Shown piece by piece: positions 2,451 to 35,917 of a DNA stretch of 64,000 nucleotides (positions are counted from its first letter, which is position 1; every line of letters begins with the position of its first letter). A program made the position numbers and the translations under genes. The notes below the pieces were generated by a model. It worked only from the letters and a program-made list of their open reading frames with translations, was not told where the DNA came from and made no database searches. Origin of the DNA: Pseudomonadota bacterium (lineage in GTDB: Bacteria > Desulfobacterota > Desulfobulbia > Desulfobulbales > SURF-16). The stretch covers positions 12,570 to 76,569 of the forward strand of contig JAHJKA010000051.1 of NCBI GenBank assembly GCA_018822545.1. Reading direction: 5' to 3'.

Positions 2451-3446
2451 TCAGGAGGCTTGCTCCAGGGCAACGCTTACGGCCACGGTGGCTCCCACCA
2501 TGGGGTTGTTGCCCATACCGATCAGGCCCATCATCTCGACATGGGCTGGCACCGAGGAAGAACCGGCAAACTGGGCATCAGAATGCATGCGTCCCATGGT
2601 ATCGGTCATGCCATACGACGCCGGGCCAGCCCCCATATTATCGGGATGCAGGGTGCGACCGGTGCCGCCGCCTGAAGCCACCGAAAAATACTTCTTGCCC
2701 TGCTGAATGCATTCCTTCTTGTAGGTGCCGGCCACCGGATGCTGGAAACGGGTGGGATTGGTGGAGTTACCGGTGATGGAGACATCCACACCCTCCAGAT
2801 GGTTGATGGCCACGCCCTCGCGGACATCGTCGGCGCCATAGCAACGCACCTTGCCTCGATCACCCTCTGAGTACACCGTTTCTTCAACGATGCTCACCAC
2901 ACCCTTGCTATAATCAAAGGCGGTTTTCACATGGGTGAAGCCGTTTATGCGGGCGATGATATGGGCGGCATCCTTGCCCAGACCATTCAAGATGACCTTA
3001 AGCGGCGACTTGCGGACCCGATTGGCAGATTTGGCGATACCAATGGCACCTTCGGCGGCGGCAAAGGATTCGTGGCCGGCCAGAAAGGCAAAGCATTTGG
3101 TCTCGTCGCGCAGCAGCATGGCGCCCAGATTGCCGTGGCCAAGGCCCACTTTCCGATCTTCAGCAACAGAGCCTGGGATGCAGAAGCTCTGCAACCCTTC
3201 GCCAAGGGCAGCGGCTATATCTGAGGCCACGGTGAGGTTTTTCTTGATGGCAATGGCTGCCCCGACAATATAGGCCCAGCAGGCGTTCTCAAAACAGATG
3301 GGTTGAATGCCCTTTACAAGCTTATAAACATCAACACCATAGTCTTCACAGATCTGCCGGGCCTCTTCCAATGAGGAGATGCCATACTGCGCAAGCACAG
3401 GGGTAATCTGGCCGATTCTTCTCTCATATCCTTCAAACAATGCCAT
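2451..3446 (-). CDS. GGGtGRT family protein
   Basis: Contains the literal family motif ...SVASGGGTGRTLHPDN... 331 aa. Sits directly downstream of a NifU-like gene, which is the usual pairing. Confidence 0.85.
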   Translation of the reverse strand: MALFEGYERRIGQITPVLAQYGISSLEEARQICEDYGVDVYKLVKGIQPICFENACWAYIVGAAIAIKKNLTVASDIAAALGEGLQSFCIPGSVAEDRKVGLGHGNLGAMLLRDETKCFAFLAGHESFAAAEGAIGIAKSANRVRKSPLKVILNGLGKDAAHIIARINGFTHVKTAFDYSKGVVSIVEETVYSEGDRGKVRCYGADDVREGVAINHLEGVDVSITGNSTNPTRFQHPVAGTYKKECIQQGKKYFSVASGGGTGRTLHPDNMGAGPASYGMTDTMGRMHSDAQFAGSSSVPAHVEMMGLIGMGNNPMVGATVAVSVALEQAS

Positions 3447-6687: not shown

Positions 6688-8172
6688 TTAATCAACGACC
6701 ACGACATCGGCAGGCCGAGAACCAAGTTCAATGGTAGTCGCCACCTTGTTTGAAGTCTGATCAATAACCGAAATCACACCACCATCCTGGGCCGCCACAT
6801 AGAGCCACTTGCTTCGGTCAGCTGCGGCCATTTCAAGGGGCGTACTGCCCACAGCTATGGACCGAACCACCCGCTGTTGCCGAACAAGGACAAGGGACAC
6901 CGAGTTGCTCCGGGAATTACTGACATACAGGGTATTATCTTTTTTCAGGAGACGGCGCGGCGTAAAACCAACAGCCAGTCTTTTGACAACCTGACGGCTG
7001 TCGAGATCAAATATCCCGATATTATTGGCGCCCTGCTCTGCCACATAGAGGTAGTCACCATCCACCAACAGGCCGTCGGGGCTACTTCCTGCCGGGACGA
7101 TGTCTCGGGTTTCCAGGGTTTCAGGGTCAACAAAATAGATCTTTTGATCAAGAGCGGAGGACAGAATAAGCTGCTGGCTGGCTTCATACCAGACAAGGTG
7201 GCGGGGCTGGTAACCAAGACGTACCTTTTTATCCATGGAGCCCCGCACAAGGTCCATACGGATAAGATAATTCCCGCCCTCATCAAGGATATAGCCCCAG
7301 TTGCCTTGAGGGCTCATGAAATAGGAGGGCGATACTATCATGGGTATCTTAAATTGGTCGACAATGCGGTTGGTGGCAGTTTCTACCACGGTGATCGTTG
7401 ACTGCTTTTCCGAAAGAACATAGAGCCTCTTTCTCGCCGCCGAATAGACCATATGGGAAGGCCGACCTTTAATGGCAAGGGAGCCAGAGACCCGATTGCG
7501 ATCGGTACTGAGCAGGTAGAGGGTATCAATGTCCGGGCAGCTCACATAGGCAAGATCAGCAAGCAGGGGCTGGTGGGGACTTAACACCGCCATCTTGGCC
7601 GTAAAATGGGAGGCCTGGCCAACAGAGGCCTTATCATCCCAGGAGATGATGAGCACCCGACTCTCTCCTGCCTGTAGTTGAAAATTGCCGGGCAAGGGGA
7701 GATCGACAACCGGCTTGTCCAGGGCAAGCAAGAATTTTTCGCCGCCCCTTAGCAGAGCGGCGTTCTCCAGACTCAGGCGCAGGAAACGGTAGTCAGCGGC
7801 CAAGACCGAACCACGGGCCAAAAAACGCTGACCGCCGCCGATATCCGCGGCCGCCAGCTCTCTGTTGCCGCCGACAAGGGGGACGATAGAGGTCTCGCCA
7901 ACCAGTTCCACAGCAGAGATCTTCAGCCAGGCCTCGCCGCCATTATCCTGGGCCAGTTGGACAAAAACCGTGACCAGGGCCTCCTGGGGCGACATCTTTT
8001 GGCCAGGGACGAGAGGAGAAGAGCTGACGCCCGCCCCCTTCACACAACCATTTAAGCCAAAAAAAATTCCAAATAGAATTAAAGACAATAGTATAACTTG
8101 CCTCCATTCCCTACCGGAGCCCCTAGTAAAAACCTTGATTTCCATTTTCGAGTGCTTCCCCCAGCGTATCAT
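6688..8172 (-). CDS. YVTN-type beta-propeller repeat protein, probable lipoprotein
   Basis: Lipobox-like FFGLNGC. C-terminal repeats of the type LYVSNSRSNSVSLV..., WLYVAAQDGGVISVIDQTSNKV. The start is ambiguous (8172 or 8145). Confidence 0.85.
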   Translation of the reverse strand: MIRWGKHSKMEIKVFTRGSGREWRQVILLSLILFGIFFGLNGCVKGAGVSSSPLVPGQKMSPQEALVTVFVQLAQDNGGEAWLKISAVELVGETSIVPLVGGNRELAAADIGGGQRFLARGSVLAADYRFLRLSLENAALLRGGEKFLLALDKPVVDLPLPGNFQLQAGESRVLIISWDDKASVGQASHFTAKMAVLSPHQPLLADLAYVSCPDIDTLYLLSTDRNRVSGSLAIKGRPSHMVYSAARKRLYVLSEKQSTITVVETATNRIVDQFKIPMIVSPSYFMSPQGNWGYILDEGGNYLIRMDLVRGSMDKKVRLGYQPRHLVWYEASQQLILSSALDQKIYFVDPETLETRDIVPAGSSPDGLLVDGDYLYVAEQGANNIGIFDLDSRQVVKRLAVGFTPRRLLKKDNTLYVSNSRSNSVSLVLVRQQRVVRSIAVGSTPLEMAAADRSKWLYVAAQDGGVISVIDQTSNKVATTIELGSRPADVVVVD

Positions 8173-8180
8173 TACTCATA

Positions 8181-9470
8181 TTAAAAAGTCTTGCGATTGG
8201 TCTGCCTGGCTCCCGCCCAACTATCATCACTTCCGTGAAAATGGCAATTGCCACAGGGAATTGGTGGAGGATTTGAACCACCACTACCGTGACAAAGGGC
8301 ACACTGAGTCGGCGAATAAGGCCGATCAGAAGAATAGTGATGGATGTATTGCCATTTGCCGACGGTATTCGTACCGGCACTGGCGGCGGCATCATCCTTG
8401 TGGCATTGGCGACACAGGGCTCCCATGACATTGGTTGTGGTGATGGTGGCACTCAGATCGCCACCATTGACTCGTTTGCGCAGCAGCATGATATTTGAGG
8501 AACCATGGGGCTCATGGCAGTCCAGGCAAGAGAGGAGAAAATTGCTCTTGGTGGCAGCGGCTGCGGTATAAGGATTCAGGGAATCAAGGAGTCCTTCCCG
8601 CACCAAGCCACCATGTTTGTCACCACTGCTCGACCAGTCTATGCTGCGCAAATTTCTGGCCAGGGTTGTGCTGTAGATGGTGTTGCTCGTATTATGGCAA
8701 TTGGTACAGAAACCGACATAATCAGCAGTTTTCGAGCCATCCGCCGTGGTGGATCCATCCGGCTCCCTGGCAGTACTGGTGGCATTGGCATAGGGCGCCT
8801 CGTAACTGCTGTAGGACGACATCAACTCCGTCTGGCCCCAGAGGTTGAAATGGTCGGTGGGTTTGGAGATGGCGCTGGAAAGAGGGGCGCTGAAATCCTG
8901 ATAATTCCGCTTGGCAAGATGGGGGTTATGGCAAGCGTTACAAGGGTTGGAATACTCGCTGTACCAGGGGAACAGGATGCTCTCACCATCAACAAAATTA
9001 TGAATGTCACCCAGGTTATGGTAGGAGCGCTGGTTAAAGGCTTCCATAATATACTGGGGCAGGGTACCCGAGGCGTCACCGCCGAAGGTGGTGGCGTAAT
9101 CACCATTGACCACCACCTGCGCCGTGGCAGAGGCACTATGGCAGTAAAAGCAGACATTATCAGCCACCAGATAGGAGCCAGGCACGGCGCTCGTATTGAA
9201 ATTGGTGGCGAACAGGGTGTAGGCGCTTGGCGTGCCAGCCGTAGGCGCTGGCTCAGAGCCGGCCACGCTGGCATGCGTTTCATGACAATGGAGGCAATTG
9301 CCGGTGGCAAAGCTGGTGGTTGCCGAGCGCTCCACCCCAGCGCTGCTTGAACCGTGGGCCGAATCAAGATAGCCCCCTGCCCACAACGCCTCTGGCAGCA
9401 GGAGGAGCCCCGCCAGGGTCACCGACAGTGGCAACATATTTAATCTTTGGCAGTATGACATATGGCGCAT
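8181..9470 (-). CDS. Octaheme c-type cytochrome
   Basis: CLHCH, CFYCH, CNACH, CTNCH, CLDCH, CRQCH, CALCH, CGNCH. Signal peptide. The 5' end overlaps the stop of the upstream OmcS-like gene. Confidence 0.9.
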   Translation of the reverse strand: MRHMSYCQRLNMLPLSVTLAGLLLLPEALWAGGYLDSAHGSSSAGVERSATTSFATGNCLHCHETHASVAGSEPAPTAGTPSAYTLFATNFNTSAVPGSYLVADNVCFYCHSASATAQVVVNGDYATTFGGDASGTLPQYIMEAFNQRSYHNLGDIHNFVDGESILFPWYSEYSNPCNACHNPHLAKRNYQDFSAPLSSAISKPTDHFNLWGQTELMSSYSSYEAPYANATSTAREPDGSTTADGSKTADYVGFCTNCHNTSNTIYSTTLARNLRSIDWSSSGDKHGGLVREGLLDSLNPYTAAAATKSNFLLSCLDCHEPHGSSNIMLLRKRVNGGDLSATITTTNVMGALCRQCHKDDAAASAGTNTVGKWQYIHHYSSDRPYSPTQCALCHGSGGSNPPPIPCGNCHFHGSDDSWAGARQTNRKTF

Positions 9471-10528
9471 CCGTTAAAGCCGGTTCCCGGCCAGTTCTTA
9501 TAATCCCACCGCAAACTGCCGTCAAACTGGCTGCCGTGGGCCCGATGACAAGAAAGACACATGACAATGGCATCATTGGCCTGACCATAGACCACGCTGT
9601 TGAGGGTGGTCGAGGTATCGGCGGTAGCCACCGGCGAAATTACGCTGTAGGGATTCCCCGCCCCCTGATAATCATTGTAATAATAATATTCCGAGGTGCT
9701 GAAGGTGGGGCCCTGCGAGCGGGCATTACTCATATCGTAATCGGTGGGATGGCGGATCCAGACATTATTGGTGAAGATGCCGGCGGAAATTTCACCAGTG
9801 CCATTATGGAAGTCATTATGGCAACGACCACAATGACTGCTGATGGTGCCAGCGCTGTCTGACTCTCCGGTGCGGTCGATACTATAATACTTGTTATGGG
9901 CCGCACTGGTGGGTTGAAACTCATAATCGCCATCTTCCAGACCCTTGACACCTTCGATGAAACGATAACTCTTAGCCACACTACTGCCGTCGTTCCAGGC
10001 CGACATATCATTTTTATGATGGCTGCCCAGCACGGACAGGGTTGGATCGACCTGGCCCTGGGAACCATGACAGCCATAGGTGCCGGCACAGGTAAGCTGA
10101 CTGAGCAATAATGCCCCCCCTGGAGGCTTATTGCCGTGTTCCAGGTCCTGACCTGCAAGATCCACAACGTTATGGCCGGCCCGATTATTGCCCGTGCTGA
10201 CCCAGTAGAAATTACCGCCGGCCAGGGTGTTGCCCTCGGTGCCGGTGGCCCCATAGGTGGGGCCGGCGGCATCAAAGACGTAGGGCACAGAACCGCTGCT
10301 GTTGCCCCCCTGGTGGCAGCCCACACAATCGGTGGTGAGCAGTCCCTTGTTGGCCACCGAGGTGTATGTCTTTACACCGCTGGCCATGGTAAAAGCCATA
10401 GGGCTACCGGCCTGACTGTTGTGCATGGTGTGGCAATTGACACAGGACCCGGAGACCTTGGCCCGGGCAGCCCAGGGCAACACGAGCAGGACGGCTAAGC
10501 ATATCCATATATATTTCTTAGAGTCCAT
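9440..10528 (-). CDS. OmcS-family hexaheme c-type cytochrome (paralogue 1)
   Basis: Blocks match my recollection of Geobacter OmcS: CVNCHTMHNS, AGGNFYWV, AGHNVV, CGRCHNDFHN...WIRHP, MCLSCHRAHGSQFD, C-terminal CAICHTAKD. Five CxxCH plus CAGTYGCH. Confidence 0.85.
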   Translation of the reverse strand: MDSKKYIWICLAVLLVLPWAARAKVSGSCVNCHTMHNSQAGSPMAFTMASGVKTYTSVANKGLLTTDCVGCHQGGNSSGSVPYVFDAAGPTYGATGTEGNTLAGGNFYWVSTGNNRAGHNVVDLAGQDLEHGNKPPGGALLLSQLTCAGTYGCHGSQGQVDPTLSVLGSHHKNDMSAWNDGSSVAKSYRFIEGVKGLEDGDYEFQPTSAAHNKYYSIDRTGESDSAGTISSHCGRCHNDFHNGTGEISAGIFTNNVWIRHPTDYDMSNARSQGPTFSTSEYYYYNDYQGAGNPYSVISPVATADTSTTLNSVVYGQANDAIVMCLSCHRAHGSQFDGSLRWDYKNWPGTGFNGCAICHTAKD

Positions 10529-10537
10529 ACTCCTCCT

Positions 10538-11443
10538 TTACCGCCCAAACACCTGAACCCGATTATTACCCTCATCGACAATGCACAGACGGCCCCAGGG
10601 ATCAAAAAGAATCTCCATGGGATAATAAAGGCTCTGCGGGCCATGGCCCTTATCAAGAAATCTGTATTTGAGCTTGGCCTTGCGATCCAGAACAATCACC
10701 TCGCCCTGATGCCGGTCGAGAATATAGACAAGACCACCGTTATCCAAGGCAAGGGCAACTGGAAACTTCACCAAGTCCGAGATATCTATCCGTTTCGTGA
10801 TTAAACCGTTGTCGCTATAGACATATAGGGTTTTTTCCTGTTGCCCCAAGGCCCATATCTGTTTGTCGACAATCTTGAAATCAACAATACCACCGCTGTT
10901 TTCCGGCAGAGGGAAGCGCTGCTCAATCTTAAAAGAATCCGACAGACGATATATCTGCCCGGTGGCCCTATCCAGAACATAGAGACTGCCCGCCGAGCTT
11001 TCAAGACGGTCGACCATGACTTGCCGCCCCTGATCCTGGACCACCACCCTCGTTGTTTCTTTGCTGGCAAAATCGATTTTGGTCAGGGAGTTTTTGCCCT
11101 TTTCAACAACAACCAGAACCGATTCATCCAGGCGAACCATGTCAAAAGGCTTAAGCAGGCCGCCCTCAGGGCTGAATGTTTTCTGGAAGGCGCCCTGGTC
11201 ATCAAAAGAGGCAAGCCGACCGCCGGCACTGTCCACCATATAATAGCGTTTCTTGTCACCATCCACATAGAGCGCTGTCGGCAAGGCGTCATGGAGGCTC
11301 TTGTCACTCAAAGTGAAGGCTAATTTCCAGGGGCTTGGAGCGTCCGTCGCCCGAACGTGACCGGGGATGGCCAGACAGAAAAGGAGAGCCACAACCCCGG
11401 CCACTGGCAGGGAACATCTTTTTACAATCCAGATGGTATCCAT
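10538..11443 (-). CDS. NHL-repeat beta-propeller protein
   Basis: Repeats ending ...PMEILFDPWGRLCIVDEGNNRVQVFGR. Signal peptide. ATG at 11443 with AGAGGA upstream (the ORF track's GTG is at 11458). Confidence 0.85.
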   Translation of the reverse strand: MDTIWIVKRCSLPVAGVVALLFCLAIPGHVRATDAPSPWKLAFTLSDKSLHDALPTALYVDGDKKRYYMVDSAGGRLASFDDQGAFQKTFSPEGGLLKPFDMVRLDESVLVVVEKGKNSLTKIDFASKETTRVVVQDQGRQVMVDRLESSAGSLYVLDRATGQIYRLSDSFKIEQRFPLPENSGGIVDFKIVDKQIWALGQQEKTLYVYSDNGLITKRIDISDLVKFPVALALDNGGLVYILDRHQGEVIVLDRKAKLKYRFLDKGHGPQSLYYPMEILFDPWGRLCIVDEGNNRVQVFGR

Positions 11444-11667
11444 TTTTTCCTCTAACACCTTTGACGGTAATATTTTTTAAGACCGGCACTCATTTCAGTA
11501 CCACCTCGGAGTCTAGCGCTTACCTGAGGGGTATAAGTGACTCGAAGGTCTCGCTTGCTCGCTATCTGGAGCTAACCAAAAGTAAGTAGTTCCCACAATG
11601 ATTCTCCAGTCTCTCGGAGTCTCGTCCCTCGCTTACCTTTTTTTCGCAAAGGTTAACGATTAAGTCA

Positions 11668-12831
11668 CTAATAGCTTCGGTGACATTGTACACACAGGGC
11701 CTTTTTACCGCTGAGCTTCAGATTATAGCGATACTCAGTGCCCATGGGATCATGACAGGAAAGGCAGGTCATGCCCTGGCCAGTGCGGTGATCAACGATG
11801 TCACTGCCCACCGGATGACTGAACTCACCTTGAGTCTTGTGGCAGCGTGAACAAACAGCATTGCCATCGGCATTGAGCATCACCAGCCTATCTGAGCCAT
11901 GGGCATCATGGCAGTCCGTACATTTCTCGGTCTTCGGATGGGGATGGAGGCTGCGTCGGTTCCGGTCAAAGGTGTCGGTATGGCACGACCGGCAGAGCTG
12001 CTCATAGGGGGCCTTGAGAAGACCCGCTATGTCAGAGGCATGGGGGCTATGACACTCCACGCAGGTGCCATCCCCGGCAAACATATGGGTATGGGGAGCC
12101 AGCATCTGCTCTCTGACCCCGGCATGACAGCTCAGACATAACTCGCTGCCCTTGGCCTCTTTGCCATGACACGAGGTACAACCCTTTTTAAAGGGGGCAT
12201 GACTATTTGCCCGGATCAGGCCCTTGCCTTTGCCGCCATGGGGATTATGGCAGGAGAGACATTTGCCCGCCTTGCCAGGGAAACCCTTATGACCGGCCAA
12301 GGCATCCGGCTGGCTATGACACCCCAGACACAGCTTGTCGCTATCCTCCTTAAGGAGCTGGTAGTTGTCAGCGTTATGGGGCTGGTGACAGGCCACACAG
12401 TTCCCCTCGGCAAAGGGCTTATGTTTCCGCGCAAACTCATTTTTAGCAAGGGACTCATGGCAACTAAAACAGCTGTCGGCAATTGGCCTGCTCAACAAAC
12501 CCTTCTGGGCTGAGGCATGGGGGCTATGACACGCCAGACACTTCCCCTCGCGAACCGGCAGGTGCTGCACCCCTTGACCAAAGGCCTTTTTAGCCTCCCC
12601 ATGACAAGAATAGCAGAGATCGCCACCCTGCTTCTGGAGCAAACCCTTGAATTTGGCGACATGGGGATTATGGCACTGGGTGCATTTACCCTGGGCCACA
12701 GGCTCATGAACAATCTTGCCGCTGAATTCCTTTTTGGGATGACAGCTGATGCATCCCTGCGCAGCCAAGGCAGAATTACAAAATAAGACCAGGACGCCTG
12801 CTGCAAGCAGTATCGCAAAACGAATCTTCAT
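11668..12831 (-). CDS. 16-heme c-type cytochrome (c7/c3-type tandem modules)
   Basis: 16 CxxCH motifs in 387 aa with a regular ...H.PV..G.C..CH.PH... periodicity. Signal peptide ending ALAAQG. The start overlaps the upstream stop (ATGA). Confidence 0.92.
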   Translation of the reverse strand: MKIRFAILLAAGVLVLFCNSALAAQGCISCHPKKEFSGKIVHEPVAQGKCTQCHNPHVAKFKGLLQKQGGDLCYSCHGEAKKAFGQGVQHLPVREGKCLACHSPHASAQKGLLSRPIADSCFSCHESLAKNEFARKHKPFAEGNCVACHQPHNADNYQLLKEDSDKLCLGCHSQPDALAGHKGFPGKAGKCLSCHNPHGGKGKGLIRANSHAPFKKGCTSCHGKEAKGSELCLSCHAGVREQMLAPHTHMFAGDGTCVECHSPHASDIAGLLKAPYEQLCRSCHTDTFDRNRRSLHPHPKTEKCTDCHDAHGSDRLVMLNADGNAVCSRCHKTQGEFSHPVGSDIVDHRTGQGMTCLSCHDPMGTEYRYNLKLSGKKALCVQCHRSY

Positions 12832-21449: not shown

Positions 21450-23207
21450 CTATCTGCTCGGTTTAATCTGGGGTTTATTCCGATCATAGGACTTTGGAGC
21501 ATGGCAGCCCACAACGCAGGTGGCGCCATTCTTGTCTTTGGTTATCGAAATCGGATACGACCAGGCACCAAAAGGCACCTCCGTGCGGATATGTTTCGCC
21601 TGGGTACTGACATGGGGATCATGGCAGGCGATACAACTGCGCCCCTTCTTCATGTTAACATGGAAATAATGGAGGTTGTATTCACCGTCCCTGAAATTGG
21701 TAAGGGTCTTGGTGAATTTCTTCTTGGCGATATCCTTATTATGACAGCCGAAACAGAGCTCATAATTCTCCGGCCGATACTCCATGTAGAATTCCTCCGG
21801 GAAATACTTGGAGAGTATCCGGGTGTTATTGGAACCATGAACATCGTGGCAGGCCATACAGTCACCTGTCTGCACAGGGCCATGACGAAACTGGCTACCT
21901 GCGACCTCGTCGGCCAATTCATCATGGCAGGTGAAACAGAGCTCTTCGGTATTCTTCTTCAGCATGGATTTCACATCGGAAGAATGAGCCCGATGGCAAT
22001 CGGTACAACGCCCCTTCTCCACCGGCTCATGCTTGAATTTTGAATTCTTGATGGCATCATAGAGCTTGGGGCTCTTCTTCTCGTGACAGTCGGCACAGAG
22101 CTGCCCCCCCTCCTTGTGGAGTTGGAAGCGGTTGTCCGAGCTGTGGGGATCATGACATTTATTACAATCATCCTGCACCGGGGCATGCACATACTTCATG
22201 GAAAATTCCTGCTGGCGATCCTTATGGCACTGAAAGCAGACCTCGCCCTTTTCCGGTGAGGCGATCAGCAGACTTTTATACTTGCCGGCATGGGGTCTGT
22301 GGCAGGCGATACAGTCACCGGAGCCCACCGGCCCATGACGATGGCTCTTGGTAAAGATCTTGGATTCATGGCAGTTAAAACAGAGGCTGCTGACACTGGC
22401 GCCATTCCCCCGGAGTTGAAAACGCATGGCAGACTCATGGGGGTTATGGCAGGAAATACAACCCTCGGTAACCGGCTTATGGATGACGCTGTCTTTAAAT
22501 TCTTCAATCTTGGCCTGATGGCAGACCACACATAAATCCTGACCGGTACGGGCAATGGCCATGGCATTATAGGAACCGTGTGGGTTATGGCAGGAAATAC
22601 AGACACCGGCCCCCACGGGGCCATGGACATGCGCGCTCTTGCCCATATCGCTATGACAGCCGCCGGTGGTACAGTTGGCCTTGGCCGGGACATTCCGCTT
22701 GAAATTAAATATACCCCGTTTCAGCTTATGGCATTCCTTGCAGTCGAGTTCGGCAGGATTAGCATGGACATAGAAGCGTTTCAGGCCCGAAGGAGCAGCC
22801 TTGCCCTTTCTCAGGGCTTCAGATTCCAGATAATAGACATGAACTGTTTTCTGTTGCTTGCCGTCGGAGAGAACGATTTCATTATTTCCCTTATCAAGGG
22901 TAATCATGACACCAAAGGCCTGGTTTTCGACCTTGATCTTGCTTTTGGGGGCGTTATTTTTAACGCCCTTGATCTCCAGCTGGGTAACGGTGGTTTCACT
23001 GACAATACCCGCTAAAAAAAGCGCCTTTTCCGTGACCCAGACATTATCGGGGGGAGAAACCACGGTAATAACATTAGCCGCCAAGGCATGACCAGCACCG
23101 ACAGAGAGCAACCCACCCATCAGCAATATAACGGTCACAACAACAGACAACATGCCGATCTGTCTTGAACTTTGCTTCACTCCTTTCAACGTCTCTCCTC
23201 CAAACAT
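21450..23207 (-). CDS. Multiheme c-type cytochrome (14 CxxCH + CX4CH + CX3CH) with an N-terminal Ig-like domain
   Basis: 14 canonical motifs plus CTTGGCH and CVVGCH. TM/signal MLSVVVTVILLMGGLL. The start is uncertain: the ORF is open to 23318, and the ATG at 23207 has GGGGGAA upstream. Confidence 0.88.
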   Translation of the reverse strand: MFGGETLKGVKQSSRQIGMLSVVVTVILLMGGLLSVGAGHALAANVITVVSPPDNVWVTEKALFLAGIVSETTVTQLEIKGVKNNAPKSKIKVENQAFGVMITLDKGNNEIVLSDGKQQKTVHVYYLESEALRKGKAAPSGLKRFYVHANPAELDCKECHKLKRGIFNFKRNVPAKANCTTGGCHSDMGKSAHVHGPVGAGVCISCHNPHGSYNAMAIARTGQDLCVVCHQAKIEEFKDSVIHKPVTEGCISCHNPHESAMRFQLRGNGASVSSLCFNCHESKIFTKSHRHGPVGSGDCIACHRPHAGKYKSLLIASPEKGEVCFQCHKDRQQEFSMKYVHAPVQDDCNKCHDPHSSDNRFQLHKEGGQLCADCHEKKSPKLYDAIKNSKFKHEPVEKGRCTDCHRAHSSDVKSMLKKNTEELCFTCHDELADEVAGSQFRHGPVQTGDCMACHDVHGSNNTRILSKYFPEEFYMEYRPENYELCFGCHNKDIAKKKFTKTLTNFRDGEYNLHYFHVNMKKGRSCIACHDPHVSTQAKHIRTEVPFGAWSYPISITKDKNGATCVVGCHAPKSYDRNKPQIKPSR

Positions 23208-23395
23208 GTTTCCCCCATTCATCAAGCCGCCATGATCATGGCAAGCAGCGTGACAACCTCGACGTTCAGCAAGGGCACGAAGATTTAAAGCATTCGTGAT
23301 CTTGCTGAATCCCGACATGTAAAAAAAGCTGCAGGAGCACTAAGCGCAGACTCCGACTTCGCTCCCACAGCTTATACTAACCAGCATACACGAAA

Positions 23396-23436
23396 ACACC
23401 GCATCGGCCCATAAACTCTGAGCCGTTGCGGTGTTC
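23396..23436 (-). terminator. Candidate (leaky) intrinsic terminator after OmcS-like paralogue 2
   Basis: On the minus strand, AACACCGCAACGGC / GCCGATGCGGTGTT form a 14-bp stem with one mismatch, followed by TTTTCG. It lies in the 146-nt gap between 23465 and 23318. Confidence 0.5.
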
Positions 23437-23464
23437 ATTACCAAGACGTTACCCTGTCTTGCTG

Positions 23465-24631
23465 TTATACATCATCCTTCGTGGTATGACATGCAAAGCA
23501 GCCACTGGTATTTGAGCCGGCATGGGCATCCATCCCAGAGTAATCCCAGCGCAGCAAGTCAGCGTTTGGTGAGCCATGGGCCCGATGGCAGGAGATACAG
23601 GTCACAACCGCATTTCCGTTAGCAGATCCGGCACCACCGATGTAGTCGATGGCTGTCACGATGGTTGCGCCACTCAAGGTGACCGAAGCAACCGGAGCCT
23701 CAAGATTGTAGGCGGTATAACCGGCATACTCCGAGGTTGTGGCCAAAGCACTCATGTCAAAATCCGTAGGGTGCCGTACCCATGGAGAACCAAAGGTGCT
23801 GCTGCTGATATTGCCTGCACCGTTATGGAACGCACCGTGACATTGCGCACAGAGTGAGCTGATTGTCGACGTGGTGTTCGTTGCCTCATCAGAACGGGCA
23901 ACCCCGGAGTAGAGGTTATGATCAGCAGTTGCTTTTGTGGCATCAGCTGTATACTCCCAGTCAGCATCCTCGATGCCGGTAATACCAGACAGCATACGGA
24001 AGGCATCGGACATATCAGTGGTGGAGCCGGCAACATAGCCGTTGGTGGCAGCATTGCCTGGGCCATGATGACCGCCGGCGATGGCGCCGAACTCATCCGT
24101 CGAAGTCGCTGCCCTGTCACCATGACAACCGGTGACACCGGCGCAGGTCAGAGCGGAAGGAAGAGGAACATTAGCGGCACCACCATTGCCAGGTGCAGAC
24201 GTAAGGGTGCTTTCAAGATTTGCAGAAGGAAGGCCAATTACATTATGCCCTGATGCATCGTTACCAGCATTGACCCAATAGAAGTTACCACCAGCCAAGG
24301 TATTCACACCAGCAGCACCGGCCACACCATAGGTGGGCGCAGCAGTACCCAATACAAAAGGCACCGTGCCACCAGCATTATCACCGGTATGACAACCCAC
24401 ACAACCATAACGAAGCAGCGCACCATTTGGCGTATTATCGGCAACAATTGCCGCACCAAAGGCGCCAGTGCTGGCCATAGCCGTACCATCCTGGCTATTA
24501 TGCATGGTATGACAGTTACCACACGGGCCGCTGACCTTGGCTGCTGCCAGTGACGGCAGGGCGAAGGCTGCACTGATGGCAATGACCGCTATCAGCTTGT
24601 TTTTGTCCACATATCTCTTCATCGTTTTCAT
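23465..24631 (-). CDS. OmcS-family hexaheme c-type cytochrome (paralogue 2), first gene of the train
   Basis: CGNCHTMHNS, AGGNFYWV, SGHNVIG, CAQCHGAFHN...WVRHPTD, TCISCHRAHGSPNAD, CFACHTTKD. Five CxxCH plus CAGVTGCH. Signal peptide ending SLAAA. Confidence 0.88.
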   Translation of the reverse strand: MKTMKRYVDKNKLIAVIAISAAFALPSLAAAKVSGPCGNCHTMHNSQDGTAMASTGAFGAAIVADNTPNGALLRYGCVGCHTGDNAGGTVPFVLGTAAPTYGVAGAAGVNTLAGGNFYWVNAGNDASGHNVIGLPSANLESTLTSAPGNGGAANVPLPSALTCAGVTGCHGDRAATSTDEFGAIAGGHHGPGNAATNGYVAGSTTDMSDAFRMLSGITGIEDADWEYTADATKATADHNLYSGVARSDEATNTTSTISSLCAQCHGAFHNGAGNISSSTFGSPWVRHPTDFDMSALATTSEYAGYTAYNLEAPVASVTLSGATIVTAIDYIGGAGSANGNAVVTCISCHRAHGSPNADLLRWDYSGMDAHAGSNTSGCFACHTTKDDV

Positions 24632-27068: not shown

Positions 27069-27278
27069 TTTTTTTAATGTAATTTTATACTCTTAAGAAC
27101 AAGGATCTTAATCTCGACAGCATCAGGAAGATCCAGAAATCTTTATGAAAAGGGCAAGATTGCAGCAAAGAATTGTTAACCGGCATGGTCCTACCATCAG
27201 TTTGCCAAAGAAATAACAGCGACTGTCAAAGACACGCCAGCCTCAAGATTGACCGGTACTCAACGAAGGGATGATTCT

Positions 27279-28316
27279 ATGAATGTTCGCATCTTCTGTA
27301 AAATACTGTCACTGACTATTCTTCTTTCTCTCTACACCTTTCTTTCCTCAGGCGTAGCCGAGTCTTTTCCTTTTCGGACGCTTTCCGTGGGTGAGCCAAT
27401 CCCCGATGTCACCCTTGTCAAGGCCGCTGACAATAGTAAATTGTCCCTGCATGAACTCAAGGGGGCACCGGCAGTTCTTGTCTTTTGGGGGGGCGATCTG
27501 GCCGCCAAGAAAAAAAGATCCATCACCGCCCTCGCCGAATTGCAGGCCCTCCTGCCCTTTTTTACTGAAAAAAATGTCGCCCTCAAAGCAATCAACGCCC
27601 AGGGTGACACAGACGCCACCATTGCTGAAATTGTCCAGGCCTCGGGCTTTACCGCCCCGATTTATCTGGATTCGGCCCAACAGGCCTACGGCGCCTTAGG
27701 AATTTTTATCATGCCATCCGTCCTGATTCTTGACAAAAACGGCATTACCGTGGCCGGCATGGGCTACAGCAAGGACATGACAGCCACCCTCAAAGGTGAA
27801 ATTGAGATTCTCCTGGGCGAGAAATCCCGCGCCCAGGTGGAAGCTGAACTGAGTCCGGTGATGGTGGATAAATCCCCTGAAGAAAAAGAAGGTAACCGCC
27901 GCCTGGGCATGGGTCATGCTATGGCCCTCAAAGGGCAGCTTGAGGCGGCTGAACGCGAATACCAGGCCGCCCTGGCAAGCAACCCTCAACTGGCCGAGGC
28001 CCATGTGGAACTCGGCTGCCTCTATTACCAACTTGGCAAAATTGCCGAGGCCCAGAAAAGTCTTGATACCGGTCTCGGCATTGATTCCAGCTCCCTGCGC
28101 GGTGAAATTTGCGCTGCCCAGGTTACTGCGGCCCAAGGTGATGTCGACACCGCCCTTGACGACCTGAAGGCCATGCTTTTTCGCAACGGCCGTAATGCAG
28201 AACTCCATTATGTGCTGGGCACCTTGTATGAAAAAAAGGAAAATCACAGCTTGGCAGCCAAGGAGTTTCGCAAATCCTATGAACTCCTGAGCCGAAGCGC
28301 CAATTTCGAAGAGTAA
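27279..28316 (+). CDS. Periplasmic thioredoxin-fold (TlpA/redoxin-like, no CxxC) plus TPR-repeat protein
   Basis: Signal peptide. LKGAPAVLVFWGGDLAAKKKRS sits where redoxins carry WCxxC. The C-terminal half has TPR-like repeats (AEAHVELGCLYYQLGKIAEAQKSL...). ATG at 27279 has AAGGGA upstream. Confidence 0.75.
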   Translation: MNVRIFCKILSLTILLSLYTFLSSGVAESFPFRTLSVGEPIPDVTLVKAADNSKLSLHELKGAPAVLVFWGGDLAAKKKRSITALAELQALLPFFTEKNVALKAINAQGDTDATIAEIVQASGFTAPIYLDSAQQAYGALGIFIMPSVLILDKNGITVAGMGYSKDMTATLKGEIEILLGEKSRAQVEAELSPVMVDKSPEEKEGNRRLGMGHAMALKGQLEAAEREYQAALASNPQLAEAHVELGCLYYQLGKIAEAQKSLDTGLGIDSSSLRGEICAAQVTAAQGDVDTALDDLKAMLFRNGRNAELHYVLGTLYEKKENHSLAAKEFRKSYELLSRSANFEE

Positions 28317-28407
28317 CGCTATCAAAGAAATCCTCTGGCGGAACGGTAAAACATGCCTCTCTCTCCCCACAACCGCCCCACGCACACCCCATGACCAAGG
28401 TTCGCTT

Positions 28408-29586
28408 ATGAAAAGTTTGACAAACATTTCCCCTCGAGGATGCCTGTCGTTGGTCGGCAGACAAAGTACCATCTTTGCCTGCTGGCTCATCATTGGCCTC
28501 AGTCTCCAGTTTCCCCAGGGAAATGCCTGGGCGGCACCGGAAATCCTGGTGCCGCCTGCAGCAGCAACCATCTATGCCCGTCAGCCCACGACCCACCTGG
28601 TCGTCCGGCAGCAGCAAAACGACAGCATAAGCCGGACACGGGTGCGCAAGGACGATTTGCTCTTCTCGCCCCAGGGTATCTGGCAAGCAAAAAATGGTGA
28701 GTATTACCTCCACTTTCGCCTGCCCCTGATTCCGGGCAAAAACTCCTTTGAGCTCATCCCCTCAGGCAAAAATGTCGTGATCAAGTACCGACCTTTACGC
28801 TCCCTGCTCAACGTCAATTTTAACGAAAAAGGGGTCTCTCTCTTCCACCGCAACGAGCTGCTGCCCGCCTCCTGCAAGGAGTGCCACCACGCAAAACCGG
28901 CCCAGCCAACCAGACCCATTGACGAGCAGGCCCAGCCTCTCTGTTTTGAATGCCATAAAAACATCGTTGAGAATAACTGGAAACACAGCCCAGCCGCCAC
29001 CCTGCAATGCCGAGCCTGTCATCAGGAGACCACTGACCCCAACAAAATCACCATCCCGGTGGGCAAGGTGGAAACCAGCTGTTTCCAGTGCCATGTCAGC
29101 AAAAAAGCTTGGCTGAAGATGGAACATATCCACGGCCCGGTGGGTACCGGCGACTGCACGGTCTGCCACAACCCCCACGCCGACCAGAATCGTGCCCAGC
29201 TCTGGGCAGCTGGCAAGGATGTAATCTGCGTGGCCTGCCATACGGACAAAAAAGACCTGCTTGCTGAAGACAGCTCCACCTATTACATCCACGGCATCAT
29301 CAAGGGCGGCGGCTGCATTGCCTGTCACAGTCCCCATGCCACCGATCACCGTTTTCAGCTTTATAAACCAATTAATGATCTGTGCGTGGGTTGTCACACC
29401 GCCTTTAAAGATGTGGTCAAGGGCCACCCGGTTGGTGGTCACCCAGTACAAGGGGTCAAAGATCCACGCCGACCGGAAAGGACCTTTTCCTGTACCAGTT
29501 GCCACAACCCCCATGGCTCAGATTATAAGTTCCTGCTCATCGGCGATATTCTCGGCGGTCAGGTATGCAGTCAATGCCACTATTAA
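28408..29586 (+). CDS. Decaheme c-type cytochrome with an N-terminal beta-rich domain
   Basis: CKECH, CFECH, CRACH, CFQCH, CTVCH, CVACH, CIACH, CVGCH, CTSCH, CSQCH. Signal peptide. Architecture resembles the 21450 gene. Confidence 0.9.
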   Translation: MKSLTNISPRGCLSLVGRQSTIFACWLIIGLSLQFPQGNAWAAPEILVPPAAATIYARQPTTHLVVRQQQNDSISRTRVRKDDLLFSPQGIWQAKNGEYYLHFRLPLIPGKNSFELIPSGKNVVIKYRPLRSLLNVNFNEKGVSLFHRNELLPASCKECHHAKPAQPTRPIDEQAQPLCFECHKNIVENNWKHSPAATLQCRACHQETTDPNKITIPVGKVETSCFQCHVSKKAWLKMEHIHGPVGTGDCTVCHNPHADQNRAQLWAAGKDVICVACHTDKKDLLAEDSSTYYIHGIIKGGGCIACHSPHATDHRFQLYKPINDLCVGCHTAFKDVVKGHPVGGHPVQGVKDPRRPERTFSCTSCHNPHGSDYKFLLIGDILGGQVCSQCHY

Positions 29587-29598
29587 TCAACAGGCGCG

Positions 29599-30873
29599 AT
29601 GATGGCTTTTAACAAAAAACACAATACGGCCTGGAAACTTGCAGCTTTCTGGCTCCTCTTTGTGGTGCTGGCCTGGCACCTTGGTTCTCCATTGGCCCAA
29701 GAAAAACCAGCTCCTGTGGAAGAGCAGAAACCTGCTACGCCCCGTGAGGTCATGCGCCTGGTCACCATTCTCAACCAGGATGATCGAGGCAAACCCCTGC
29801 GTTTCCCCATCAACATCTCGGCAGAGAATGACCAGGAAGAAATCTACGTTATTAACGGCGGCCAGGGCAACATCCTCATCTACGGCCGGGATTTTTTCCC
29901 CCATCTTGTCCTGGGGGCCGGTCGGGGAATTGACAGCCCGCAATGCATCTTCTTTGACATGGAGCATGGCAAGGTCTTCATCGGCCAGAATCACACGGCC
30001 CAGAACCCCAGCAGGCTGACCATCTTAAATGCCGCCTTCCTGCCGGAAAAAGAAGTGACGTTCACAGCCATGCCCGATGGGGAGAAATTTTCCATCACCA
30101 ACGGCATGGTGGGTAAAAACGGCAAGCTTTACCTGATTGGCAACCAGAGCCGTGGTGCCCTGGTTCTTGATGCCGAGGGCAAGTTCTCCCACTGGCTCAA
30201 ACCCATGGATAAGATTTTCCTGGACGCGCCGGTGAAAACCTCAGACAGCACCGAGGAGAGACTGGAGTATCTTGCCGAGCTCCAAAAAAATACCGCTGCC
30301 CCCCCAGAGGAAGTCTCGGCCGTGCCAGAAGGATTACCCGCTGAACTGCTGCCAAAATCACGGGGCACCATCCCCACAGATAAGGAAAAGGGCAAAGATC
30401 TTCAGCCCGTCCTCCTCCATGACATTGCCATTGACAGTGACGGCCGCATCTTTCTGCTCAGCGAAGAGACCAGCAAAGTTTATGTCTATGGTCCCGGGGA
30501 AAACTTCCTCTTTTCCTTTGGCCAGAAGGGTGGCTCATCGGGCAAGATGAGCCGCCCCAGAGGACTTTGTCTCGATGAGAAGAAAAAATGCATCTACATC
30601 GTTGACTACATGCGGCACACCATCTTGACCTTTGACATGGCTGGGCGCTTCATTTTTGAGTTCGGGGGTAGGGGCACAGGAGCGCTGTGGTTCAACTTCC
30701 CCACGGCTATTGATGTCGATCGTCAAGGGCGGCTGCTTATTGCCGATCTTTTTAATAACCGGGTGCAAATCCTGGAGAGCGATTTTACCATCAGTTATCC
30801 GGTGTTCGGTAACACCAAGGGTCTGCCGCCTAAACAGAAAGACACCAGCAGAGATGAACCCGCGCAGCCCTAA
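29599..30873 (+). CDS. NHL-repeat beta-propeller protein
   Basis: ...RPRGLCLDEKKKCIYIVDYMRHTILTFD..., FPTAIDVDRQGRLLIADLFNNRVQILE. Signal peptide. Confidence 0.85.
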   Translation: MMAFNKKHNTAWKLAAFWLLFVVLAWHLGSPLAQEKPAPVEEQKPATPREVMRLVTILNQDDRGKPLRFPINISAENDQEEIYVINGGQGNILIYGRDFFPHLVLGAGRGIDSPQCIFFDMEHGKVFIGQNHTAQNPSRLTILNAAFLPEKEVTFTAMPDGEKFSITNGMVGKNGKLYLIGNQSRGALVLDAEGKFSHWLKPMDKIFLDAPVKTSDSTEERLEYLAELQKNTAAPPEEVSAVPEGLPAELLPKSRGTIPTDKEKGKDLQPVLLHDIAIDSDGRIFLLSEETSKVYVYGPGENFLFSFGQKGGSSGKMSRPRGLCLDEKKKCIYIVDYMRHTILTFDMAGRFIFEFGGRGTGALWFNFPTAIDVDRQGRLLIADLFNNRVQILESDFTISYPVFGNTKGLPPKQKDTSRDEPAQP

Positions 30874-30905
30874 AGAAAAAATGCGAGACCTTTTACTCTA
30901 TTAGT

Positions 30906-31364
30906 TTGGCAAGGAAAACGACTTTGAATCCTTTTAGAATCACATACATACTCTCAGCAGCCCTGGCGGCTCTCCTTCTTTTGGGGAACCCGGTATGGGC
31001 TGAGACAGAGTTTATTATTGTGGTTCACAAGGATAACCCCATCCGGCGGCTGCCGGCGGCCAAGATCAAAAGTATCTTTCTCGGCAAGGAACGCTCCTGG
31101 CCCGACGGCTCGCCCATCCTGCTGATCATGAATAAAAATGATGATATCCATGAATCCTTTACCCGAATCATGCTCCAGAAATCACCTGCACAGCTCTCCG
31201 TGTACTGGAAAAAAATCCTTTATAGCGGGGCCAGCATGCTTCCCCTTGCAGTTAAGGACGATGAAGCTGTAAAATCATATATGAGCCTGCATAAAAACAC
31301 GATCAGCTATATAGATGCCGACTCCCTAGATAAACAGGTCCGCCAATTGGAGGTTATACCCTGA
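30906..31364 (+). CDS. Short periplasmic PstS/PBP-like domain protein
   Basis: FIIVVHKDNPIRRLPAAKIKSIFLGKERSWPDGSPI...ISYIDADSLD resembles a single lobe of phosphate-type binding proteins. TTG start. Signal peptide. Confidence 0.6.
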   Translation: MARKTTLNPFRITYILSAALAALLLLGNPVWAETEFIIVVHKDNPIRRLPAAKIKSIFLGKERSWPDGSPILLIMNKNDDIHESFTRIMLQKSPAQLSVYWKKILYSGASMLPLAVKDDEAVKSYMSLHKNTISYIDADSLDKQVRQLEVIP

Positions 31365-31405
31365 CAAGAAACTGGGGAAGTATCCGAACAAAAATCTGGC
31401 TCTGT

Positions 31406-33043
31406 GTGCTTGTCTCGCTGGCCGGTTATTTTATTGCAACCATCGCCAGTTTCTACTCGAATATGGGGCAGTACGACCGCCTCTCCCATCTGGAAGAAAC
31501 ATGGTATCCCATGGCCACTCTGGGCTCCGACATGCTCCACAGCTTCAAGGCCCAAATCGACAAGCATGAGGATGCCTTTCTCACCGGCGAAGAAGAGCTT
31601 TCCGATGAGATCAATGCCCTCAATTTTATTCTGCTCGACAAGTTTGCTAAAATTGAAGAAATTTTGCGCAGCAAGCCCCGGATTCCGGTGAAAATTGCTG
31701 ACATCGAAAAGCTCAAACAGGATTATATCGCCCATCTCAAACTGGCCAAAGACATTGAAACATGGGCCGACGATGCCATTGAACTGACGCCGAAACTGCA
31801 AAAGGAGATCCAGCAGCATGGTCGCCAGCAACGCGATCTGCTTGAACGCTTCACCAGCCTCGACAAAAATTTCTCCAGCTGCTTTATCCAGGAGATTCAG
31901 CGCAACAAGGTCAAAACGCTGCACACCACCTTCTTCCTCGGCTTTCTCTTCCTCCTTGTTCTGCTTTTTGCCACCGCAATCATTGATAAAGTTGCTGACC
32001 GCCTGCTCATCAAACCTCTGGCTACCATCAAGGATAATGTCCGGCGCTTTGCGGTTTCCCAGGATATTATCGAACCCCAAGGGACAAGCGACACAGACGA
32101 GGTAGGGCTTCTGGCCTCGGCCTTCTGGGAAATGACCAAGGACCTCAAGGCCACCACCGTATCGAAAAAATATGTGGACAATATTATCCGCAATATGTCC
32201 GGCGCCCTGGTGGTGCTCAACCCTGAAGGAATTATCCAAAAAATAAACCAGCAAGCAACAGCCCTTTTTGATTATGAGGAAAAGGACCTGCTGGGTCAGC
32301 CGGCAACCCTTCTTTTTGTCGAGGCCAAGGAAAACCCCATCAAGAACCTGAGCCGCCTGGGCAACTGGCCTTTCAAAAATCTTGAGGTGAACTGCCGCAC
32401 CAAGGATGGCCGCATTTTCCCCGCCCATTTTTCTGGATCAGTCATGGATAACGAGGCCGGCAATGTGGTTGGTCTGGTCTGCGTTTTAAACGACATAACC
32501 GAGTTAAAAAATTCCGAGTTGAAACTTAAACAAATGGCGCTTCATGACCCACTCACGGGGCTTGCCAACCGCCATCTCTTTTTTGATCGCCTCGACCTTG
32601 CCACCCACGAGGCAGAACGCAGCGGCGGCAAGTTTGCCTTGCTCTTTCTTGACCTTGATAAATTTAAACCGGTTAATGACACCCTGGGCCACGATATCGG
32701 TGATCTTGTTCTCAAAAATGTCGCCACCAGGTTGCAGAATCTGGTCCGGGCCGGTGATACCGTGGCCCGTATGGGCGGTGACGAGTTCACCATTATTTTA
32801 AATGGCCTCCATTCCGACGAGGATGCTGAAAAGATTGCCGATAAAATCATTCAACGTATTGCTATTCCCTTTACCTTCGGCAATATTTCATGCAGCCTTG
32901 GCGTCAGTATCGGCATCACCCTTTTCCCGGACCACGGCACCCTTGCCGAACAGCTGATTAACAGGGCGGACCAATCCATGTATCTTGCCAAGGCCCAGGG
33001 GAGAAACACCTACTGTGTCTATCAAAATCAAGACCCGAGTTAA
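31406..33043 (+). CDS. Membrane sensor diguanylate cyclase (TM-periplasmic helical domain-TM-HAMP-PAS-GGDEF)
   Basis: RMGGDEFTIIL with an RAGD I-site 5 residues upstream, and HDPLTGLANR. By homology to the next gene the N-terminus probably extends upstream: CTG at 31361 with GGAGG 8 nt before it, otherwise GTG at 31406. Confidence 0.88.
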   Translation: MLVSLAGYFIATIASFYSNMGQYDRLSHLEETWYPMATLGSDMLHSFKAQIDKHEDAFLTGEEELSDEINALNFILLDKFAKIEEILRSKPRIPVKIADIEKLKQDYIAHLKLAKDIETWADDAIELTPKLQKEIQQHGRQQRDLLERFTSLDKNFSSCFIQEIQRNKVKTLHTTFFLGFLFLLVLLFATAIIDKVADRLLIKPLATIKDNVRRFAVSQDIIEPQGTSDTDEVGLLASAFWEMTKDLKATTVSKKYVDNIIRNMSGALVVLNPEGIIQKINQQATALFDYEEKDLLGQPATLLFVEAKENPIKNLSRLGNWPFKNLEVNCRTKDGRIFPAHFSGSVMDNEAGNVVGLVCVLNDITELKNSELKLKQMALHDPLTGLANRHLFFDRLDLATHEAERSGGKFALLFLDLDKFKPVNDTLGHDIGDLVLKNVATRLQNLVRAGDTVARMGGDEFTIILNGLHSDEDAEKIADKIIQRIAIPFTFGNISCSLGVSIGITLFPDHGTLAEQLINRADQSMYLAKAQGRNTYCVYQNQDPS

Positions 33044-33057
33044 ACGAAATTACCACC

Positions 33058-34998: not shown

Positions 34999-35498
34999 CA
35001 TTCCGCCCAAAATATTTGCCTGGCGCACCCGATACCATGCTGATTTCCATCTTGAGCCAATCGGTGCCCCATAGCACCTGGTTGCGCACAGCCTTACAGC
35101 GTGACTTAATCACACAAGGCGTGCGTCCTTTCCCCCCGGACAAGACACTAGGGCAAAATGCCGCATAACCAACTGTTGGCCCCTCCCCCCCTCAGAAAAT
35201 GAGCAGCCGTCTTCTAAAAAAACAGGCGAATCCCTCTCCCAAAATTCTTCAATATACATATAATGCATTATTTCTCATTGAAAACACGTCATTATTATTG
35301 GGAGCAACCTAAGTCCTCAATATGCGGTACAGCTTTTGCTATTTCCAAATCATAAAGAGAATATGCATCGATAGGCGCAAAAAACGTACTACGTCTTATC
35401 CGCCCCAGACATGGCCACACAACGACGATCATCTGCAAGACTTTAAGGATGAAGGCTGCCGCTACCCCACGCCATACTGCGAAAAAGAGAGGCAAACG

Positions 35499-35852: not shown

Positions 35853-35917
35853 CGCGGTGGAAAAACCTCCACCCCTGACTTTTTTGCATTTCCATCCTGT
35901 TTGCCCTTCTCTCCCCC

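Follow-up and report, generated by a model that had tools for sequence, protein, structure and literature searches.

A near-universal CX5CH motif at the third, very likely haem-binding, site of OmcS-like cytochromes: two paralogues in a Desulfobulbales gene cluster

The six-haem cytochrome OmcS of Geobacter sulfurreducens (GSU2504; PDB 6EF8 and 6NEF) stacks its haems in the order of its haem motifs, and all 12 of its 12 axial ligands are histidines, one of which is provided by the neighbouring subunit (PMC6584659). The osc operon of G. sulfurreducens contains internal OmcS-like paralogues, OmcT and OscC, as described by Shen et al. (2025) according to the summary in PMC13194489. 'OmcS-like' cytochromes have also been described in the oet cluster of syntrophic sulfate reducers (Murali et al., 2023, PMC10553843), and a 'sister clade of OmcS' was reported for Desulfurivibrionaceae, with DA_402, DA_756 and DA_765 of Desulfurivibrio alkaliphilus as representatives (Nature 2025, PMC12545173). 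In the latter study haem motifs were counted as CXnCH with n = 2 to 5, six motifs of DA_402 were aligned to OmcS, and a template modelling score (TM-score) of 0.56 was obtained for DA_402 versus OmcS. Here we analyzed a 64-kb stretch of a Desulfobulbales genome (GenBank assembly GCA_018822545.1, contig JAHJKA010000051.1, positions 12,570 to 76,569), in the following called the window, which encodes two OmcS-like proteins, P0001 (paralogue 1) and P0002 (paralogue 2). Both have a CX5CH motif at the third haem site. The two genes and their relevant elements are listed below, with all coordinates given as positions within the window.

9440..10528, minus strand: P0001, OmcS-like cytochrome with six predicted haems, P1-type group, 362 aa (open reading frame and translation)
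10460..10528, minus strand: predicted signal peptide of P0001, residues 1-23, MDSKKYIWICLAVLLVLPWAARA, with cleavage expected before KVSGSC (by reading the sequence)
10067..10090, minus strand: CX5CH motif CAGTYGCH of P0001, C147-H154 (residues 147-154), third haem site (sequence)
23465..24631, minus strand: P0002, OmcS-like cytochrome with six predicted haems, P2-type group, promoter-proximal, 388 aa (open reading frame and translation)
24122..24145, minus strand: CX5CH motif CAGVTGCH of P0002, residues 163-170 (sequence)

P0001 and P0002 share 42% identity over their full length and have the same series of haem-motif spacers (2,2,5,2,2,2), i.e., five CXXCH motifs and one CX5CH motif each. 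The two CX5CH motifs are located exactly at the nucleotide positions reported in an initial annotation of this DNA. The predicted mature start of P0001 lies a few residues ahead of the first cysteine, a feature kept across the OmcS-like clade. Searches of P0001 against Pfam and NCBIfam returned only generic multihaem signatures; its top database match was 79% identical and the nearest named isolates showed 59-61% identity.

The initial annotation had placed both proteins in the OmcS family, and the similarity searches bear this out. When P0001 was compared with the PDB sequences by phmmer, OmcS was the sole match (6EF8, 6NEF; E = 6.3e-11, residues 28-342), and a profile of 113 homologues matched OmcS 6EF8 with an E-value of 3.6e-20. 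Identity between P0001 and OmcS was about 27% by BLASTP. An hhalign comparison of the profile of the OmcS-like clade with that of OmcS-type sequences gave a probability of 99.9% and an E-value of 4e-32 over 305 columns. Like OmcS, P0001 has six haem sites in the same order, and the two proteins have a series of blocks in common: CxxCHTMHNS at the mature N-terminus, GHN, PPGG, the third haem site, YRxL, CxxCH...H, RHP, C(L/I)SCHRAH and a C-terminal CxxCH. Unlike OmcS, P0001 is about 45 residues shorter and has CX5CH instead of CSSCHDPH at haem 3; the CSSCH of OmcS, which had been given in the initial annotation, was seen in the alignments. The CX5CH motif is flanked by the same conserved blocks as haem 3 of OmcS, PPGG upstream and YRFL downstream, which agrees with the earlier assignment of this region as homologous to the third haem site. 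On a phylogenetic tree P0001 falls outside the OmcS-type clade. It lacks CxxCHDPH, having CAGTYGCHGSQ, and it lacks the mature FH(S/D)GG start, having KVSGSC. The signature of the OmcS-like sister clade, consisting of C[AGS]GxxGCH, an invariant HH pair, H211, H241 and RHP, is completely present.

We then determined how widespread the CX5CH motif is. A word-indexed search with P0001 yielded 2,231 clusters at 90% identity (E ≤ 1e-3); within the best 120 of these, all sequences spanning the site had a spacer of 5 residues at site 3. An exhaustive search of 50%-representatives gave 877 matches, and more than 90% of the best 150 had this spacer with the consensus C-[A/G/S]-G-x-x-G-C-H, other spacers (2, 3, 4, 6, 10, 12) being rare among them. 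Residues C147, G149, G152, C153, H154 and G155 of P0001 were invariant in 113 aligned homologues, and the conservation of the motif is far above chance. In a MAFFT alignment of 290 sequences, composed of database matches, open reading frames of 80 genome loci, ten paralogues of the genome and an OmcS fragment, C[AGS]GxxGCH/CX5CH was present at site 3 of 270 sequences, a figure of 93% that is biased toward the clade, as relatives were picked for their similarity to the queries and had to contain CxxCHT[MI]HN. In a FastTree phylogeny rooted on the OmcS-type sequences, the motif was found in 161/161 members of the clade containing P0001 (P1-type) and in 61/62 members of the clade containing P0002 (P2-type). 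The deepest branches of the OmcS-like clade also carried CX5CH, and spacer variants were scattered in a third, mixed group. Where the spacer varied within the clade (2, 3, 6, 8, 10, 12), both cysteines and the histidine stayed at the same place.

For the OmcS-type relatives, a search with the genome's own canonical OmcS-type gene resulted in 2,896 clusters, of which the best 120 were inspected: 117 had six CXXCH motifs and 112 had CxxCHDPH at haem 3. As read from these alignments and the tree, the OmcS superfamily divides into two large clades, one in which CX5CH is standard and one that lacks it. By the same criteria, CX5CH is ancestral to a whole clade of thousands of members and nearly universal within it. 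P0001 and P0002 thus share the motif because of common clade ancestry and not because of a special retention in this operon. The alignment of homologues that the initial annotation had suggested as a check revealed CX5CH across the whole OmcS-like clade; the argument that its conservation points to a function stands, whereas the notion that this conservation is peculiar to the two paralogues does not.

The genome (3.34 Mb, 94 contigs, 85% complete) contains at least ten OmcS-family genes, including the two in the window. P0001 is thus not merely a 'second' paralogue, as it had been called. Two tandem heptahaem genes with CX5CH and CX6CH are located on contig C39 (L087, L088), one further OmcS-family gene with CX5CH on contig C9 (L090), and two with CXXCH or CX3CH at site 3 on contig C27 (L089, L091). 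Three tandem canonical OmcS-type genes with CxxCHDPHG at haem 3 are present on contig C64 (38500-45500, L093). Altogether, 46 open reading frames of the genome have three or more CXXCH motifs, and these contain 362 CXXCH, 6 CX3CH, 3 CX4CH, 5 CX5CH and 2 CX6CH motifs. All five CX5CH motifs fall at the third site of OmcS-like proteins.

The presence of candidate haem ligands was analyzed in alignments of the homologues. All 12 cysteines and 14 histidines of P0001 were at least 92% conserved, and most at least 97%, in the P1-type, the P2-type and the remaining subgroups. Besides the six proximal histidines, eight histidines outside the motifs (36, 119, 170, 171, 211, 241, 260 and 331) are candidates for the six distal positions, and the conserved set is thus sufficient for six bis-histidine haems. 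In the OmcS-type clade, the histidines that are invariant or nearly so number exactly 12, and they include those of the N-terminal FH and of CHDPH. The CX5CH clade is without these two and instead has the invariant HH pair (H170, H171), H211 and H241, which suggests that two distal haem ligands may be rewired and the interior rearranged.

An AlphaFold2 model of P0001, calculated from the 113-sequence alignment, had a mean predicted local distance difference test score (pLDDT) of 69.8 and a predicted template modelling score of 0.72. The CX5CH region was the best-modelled part of the protein (pLDDT of about 90 in blocks of ten residues) and was predicted as a beta-hairpin with strands formed by residues 145-148 and 152-155. 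As a control, the model of a canonical OmcS-type paralogue from contig C64 reached a pLDDT of 84.2, had a helical turn at CNSCH, and matched 6EF8 in a Foldseek search with an E-value of 5.9e-30 and a TM-score of 0.78.

P0001 and P0002 are part of a train of genes on the minus strand. It comprises, in this order, genes for a sigma54-type response regulator, P0002, a 622-aa multihaem cytochrome, a 698-aa protein, an LpoB-like lipoprotein, a 505-aa protein and a protein with a peptidyl-prolyl isomerase (PPIase) domain, and continues with a 649-aa multihaem cytochrome, a 16-haem cytochrome, an NHL propeller, P0001, an octahaem cytochrome, a YncE-type propeller and another cytochrome. The 698-aa and 505-aa proteins had no Pfam match. 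The elements surrounding the two OmcS-like genes are the following.

23319..23440, minus strand: two terminator-like hairpins with U-runs between P0002 and the next gene (RNA fold -63.4 kcal/mol, z = -5.5)
11668..12831, minus strand: 16-haem cytochrome, 387 aa, upstream of the NHL gene (Pfam Paired_CXXCH_1, 8 stretches; synteny)
10538..11458, minus strand: NHL-repeat beta-propeller gene, conserved upstream partner of P0001 (Pfam NHL, E = 1.2e-8)
10529..10537, minus strand: 9-nt spacer between the NHL stop codon and the P0001 ATG (10528), with the Shine-Dalgarno sequence AGGAGG (sequence)
8181..9470, minus strand: octahaem cytochrome gene, conserved downstream partner of P0001 (eight CXXCH, Pfam, synteny)
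6688..8172, minus strand: YncE/YVTN-type beta-propeller gene, conserved downstream partner (Pfam, NCBIfam, synteny)

To check whether this organization is conserved, we inspected 80 loci from species-representative genomes. About 50 of them showed the order 16-haem cytochrome, NHL, P1-type, octahaem cytochrome and/or propeller, with the NHL homologue directly preceding the P1-type gene. The order P2-type, (622-aa cytochrome), 698-aa protein was found in about 20 of the 80 loci, and within the P2-type tree clade (62 sequences) 18 members from genome loci had a homologue of the 698-aa protein, of the 622-aa cytochrome, or of both downstream. Several contigs contained both modules 12-15 kb apart, as in the window. 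The loci came from Desulfobulbaceae, Desulfurivibrionaceae, Desulfocapsa, Thermodesulfobacteria, Desulfofervidaceae, Desulfuromonadales and Desulfonauticus. The same block of 16-haem cytochrome, NHL, OmcS-like protein and propeller was also seen, with 47-49% identity, on two contigs labelled Promethearchaeota (L022) and Heimdallarchaeota (L028), which are probably mis-binned Desulfobacterota.

The distance of 9 nt between the NHL gene and P0001, already described in the initial annotation, lies within the range of the orthologous loci, where these gaps are typically about 3-20 nt. The annotation had also stated that the start of the octahaem gene overlaps the 3' end of P0001. The longest frame of this gene indeed has its start at 9470, which lies 31 nt within the P0001 gene, with further in-frame ATG codons at 9461 and 9437. 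Its overlapping N-terminus reads MSYCQRL and recurs as MSYKQKL in the closest named relative, Hydrosulfovibrio ferrireducens (L002, L003), which makes the overlap plausible; for this reason the explanation as a pure longest-frame artefact was not adopted. In distant orthologues the octahaem gene starts 3-21 nt past the OmcS-like stop codon. Tight coupling of the two genes is general, and the overlap itself is plausible but not proven.

Several other features of the window were noted. The 622-aa multihaem cytochrome (21450-23318, minus strand) has non-canonical CTTGGCH (CX4CH) and CVVGCH (CX3CH) motifs. A divergent module on the plus strand (27249-38068) encodes an AhpC/TSA-redoxin and TPR protein, a multihaem cytochrome (a decahaem protein according to the initial annotation) and an NHL protein of 424 aa; behind these come genes for a protein with PAS and GGDEF domains, a histidine kinase with a PAS domain, and a sigma54 activator that carries PilZ at its N-terminus. 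As a member of the thioredoxin fold, the first of these proteins would be a candidate for apocytochrome thiol reduction. At the far end of the minus-strand train a GGGtGRT-family protein is encoded (2451-3446, minus strand; Pfam E = 1.5e-192).

We propose that P0001 is a secreted six-haem c-type cytochrome of the OmcS-like clade, sister to OmcS proper, in which the CX5CH motif (C-[A/G/S]-G-x-x-G-C-H-G) represents the clade's ancestral haem-3 site with a longer loop between the cysteines, predicted by AlphaFold as a tight beta-hairpin in place of the usual helical turn. The haem would most likely be attached by the organism's single general System II (ResB plus CcsA), resulting in an uninterrupted six-haem chain as in OmcS. 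P0001 would be translationally coupled to the NHL propeller and the octahaem cytochrome in an extracellular-electron-transfer cluster of the osc/oet type and would serve as a minor, machinery-associated cytochrome (a relay, base or nucleating unit) rather than as bulk filament subunit. Taken as a whole, i.e., clade membership with six haems, System II-dependent maturation of the CX5CH site and a minor role within the machinery, we regard this proposal as likely. Several points weigh against it. The published D. alkaliphilus tables disagree, DA_756 and DA_765 being given as 'OmcS-like 5x' versus 6 haems (PMC12545173). At site 3, HMMER and hhalign aligned without gaps and paired H154 with the second histidine of OmcS CHDPH, whereas MAFFT matched Cys1 with Cys1 and CH with CH and inserted three residues between the cysteines, so that the residue-level match of CX5CH to OmcS haem 3 appears ambiguous; the variable spacers with a constant Cys...Cys-His favour a variable-length loop between the two cysteines. 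The P0001 model, which is of moderate quality (pLDDT 69.8), gave 0 matches in the PDB by Foldseek. Since the C64 control worked, this reflects a weak or diverged model and not a failure of the method, and the fold of P0001 may be diverged, or the model poor. To the same side belong the sampling bias mentioned above, the incompleteness of the genome, due to which a second lyase could be missing from the assembly, and the way in which the D. alkaliphilus counterparts were assigned (see below).

One alternative is that the CX5CH site is haem-free and P0001 a pentahaem protein, with C147 and C153 forming a cross-strand disulfide or a site for another metal. The model places both cysteines on adjacent strands of a tight hairpin, and one published table lists the D. 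alkaliphilus counterparts as '5x'. In the literature searched, the terms CX5CH and CXXXXXCH were absent and no solved structure with a CX5CH haem site was found. However, AlphaFold2 models the apo-protein, so that the hairpin is no evidence for a disulfide, and the histidine following the second cysteine is 98-100% conserved. Relatives in the clade carry CXXCH, CX3, CX6, CX8 or CX12 at the same spot, and the eight invariant histidines outside the motifs are available for the six distal positions. Moreover, with site 3 empty the haem chain would be broken, since the haems of OmcS are stacked in the sequence of their motifs (PMC6584659). We therefore consider a haem-free site very improbable. 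Judged from the conserved residues, a haem is very likely attached at CX5CH, giving a six-haem chain. A related question is whether its attachment needs a dedicated haem lyase, as had been suggested in the initial annotation. There is precedent for this, since the CX15CH site of MccA needs CcsA1 and the CXXCK site of NrfA needs NrfI or NrfEFG; CX3CH and CX4CH sites, in turn, occur in cytochromes c3. To our knowledge, a five-residue spacer is not among the described classes of haem c sites. No cytochrome-maturation gene, including the CcsA/ResB family, was found in the window, and the genome has a single ResB adjoining a single CcsA (contig C21). The only other CcsA-family open reading frame (269 aa; C26:888-3672, locus L094) lies, as judged by eye, between sirohaem-synthase-like and hemA-like genes and was rejected as a dedicated lyase because of this HemX-like context. 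A single ResB was likewise present in each of five other genomes in which the clade occurs; in three of these just two CcsA-family genes were found, with sizes and scores fitting a CcsA plus HemX-like pattern, and the other two have two extra CcsA/CcmF-family matches each. The comparison genomes include a 1.7-Mb Thermodesulfobacterium isolate, which has the minimal set, and isolate B35, whose cluster is located on a 2.95-Mb contig. No extra specialised lyase of the CcsA, CcsBA or CcmF type was thus detected in this 85%-complete genome or in three of the five comparison genomes. The extra matches in two genomes, the incomplete assembly and the AhpC/TSA thioredoxin-fold and TPR protein in the neighbouring divergent module (27249-28316) could be taken in favour of a dedicated lyase. 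On the other hand, CX3CH, CX4CH and CX6CH motifs also occur in the same genome, and the general System II probably matures these as well as the CX5CH sites. A dedicated lyase is in our opinion highly unlikely, and this part of the initial annotation was not upheld.

With respect to the roles of the two paralogues, the initial annotation had suggested a different stoichiometry or function of P0001 and the promoter-proximal P0002. This appears probable, since P1-type and P2-type genes form separate synteny groups, P0002 is followed by the two terminator-like hairpins, and the transcripts of the apparent counterparts in D. alkaliphilus differ about 400-fold. The hairpins were not listed by a simple consensus terminator scan and were found by direct folding. 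In iron-respiring D. alkaliphilus, 13,832 reads per kilobase per million (RPKM) were reported for DA_765 and 34 RPKM for DA_756 (PMC12545173), the latter being matched to P0001 and the former to P0002 by gene order and sizes only. P0001 is thus probably made at a much lower level than P0002. An alternative would be that P0001 itself is the bulk subunit of a second, separate nanowire. H36 of CHTMHNS is invariant in the homologues and aligned with the CHTMHNS of OmcS, whose histidine we take to be the ligand of haem 5 in the neighbouring subunit. This apparent counterpart of the one inter-subunit ligand of OmcS (PMC6584659) is retained in P0001, the full conserved set of cysteines and histidines is the same as in the P2-type, and the P1-type is the larger clade in our sample (161 versus 62 sequences). 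The clade sizes are biased, however, because P0001 was used as the sampling query. Furthermore, P0001 lies in the middle of the operon behind the two hairpins, its positional counterpart shows the low transcript level given above, and P1-type genes are invariably in tight linkage with NHL, octahaem and propeller genes, suggesting a complex. A second nanowire built from P0001 is a possibility, although an unlikely one, and we prefer the view of P0001 as a minor, machinery-associated cytochrome. More speculatively, the hairpin at CX5CH, together with the exchanged distal histidines, might mark a structurally distinct OmcS-like class, in which the low-abundance P1-type protein nucleates, anchors or feeds a P2-type filament in the manner of a two-component nanowire; we consider this idea rather doubtful.

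Counting haems by CXXCH alone under-reports the members of this clade as five-haem proteins, as happened in one of the D. alkaliphilus tables, and the haem count bears on the prediction of a continuous electron path. Members of the clade abound in Desulfobulbales and Thermodesulfobacteria of the sulfur cycle, as well as in the partners of archaea that oxidise methane. A useful annotation rule would be to treat C[AGS]GxxGCH as a normal third haem site that is apparently matured by the general System II. Like the CX3CH, CX4CH, CX15CH and CXXCK sites, the CX5CH site departs from CXXCH in spacing or ligand and keeps the cysteines and the histidine or lysine. Unlike the situation for MccA and NrfA, no dedicated lyase was seen with the CX5CH clade in the genomes analyzed.

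Comparison with the published clusters shows that much of this is already described, namely the clade, its relation to OmcS, the gene neighbourhood and the induction during iron respiration (PMC12545173, PMC10553843). The taxonomic range of the sister clade described there, comprising Desulfobulbales, Thermodesulfobacteria and Desulfofervidaceae, is the same as that found here. Our additions are modest and consist of the recognition of CX5CH as near-universal third site and the lyase analysis, for which no explicit prior statement was found: in the literature searched, 'CX2-5CH' occurred only in PMC12545173, and PMC12545173 and PMC10553843 do not discuss CX5CH as hallmark of the clade. In D. 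alkaliphilus, DA_758 ('MtrA-like 16x'), DA_757 ('hyp', at the position of the NHL gene), DA_756 ('OmcS-like') and DA_755 ('MHC 8x', multihaem cytochrome) match the genes around P0001 in order and sizes, DA_756 having 1077 nt versus 1089 nt for P0001, and DA_765 ('OmcS-like') is located 11 kb upstream of this block. The protein accessions of DA_756 and DA_765 are WP_013162986.1 and WP_013162995.1, respectively. The operon in the window resembles the osc operon as summarised in PMC13194489, which is long, has an OmcS-family gene at its head and encodes, besides OmcS-like paralogues, a PPIase, several lipoproteins, very large multihaem cytochromes and a probable protein of the outer membrane. Of such osc/oet-type content, likened by descriptions, the window was seen to encode the PPIase domain, the LpoB-like lipoprotein and the multihaem cytochromes of 649, 622 and 387 aa. 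P0001 is an ordinary member of a described group rather than a new kind of system, and the gene train in the window appears to match the oet and osc clusters as they are described in PMC10553843 and PMC13194489.

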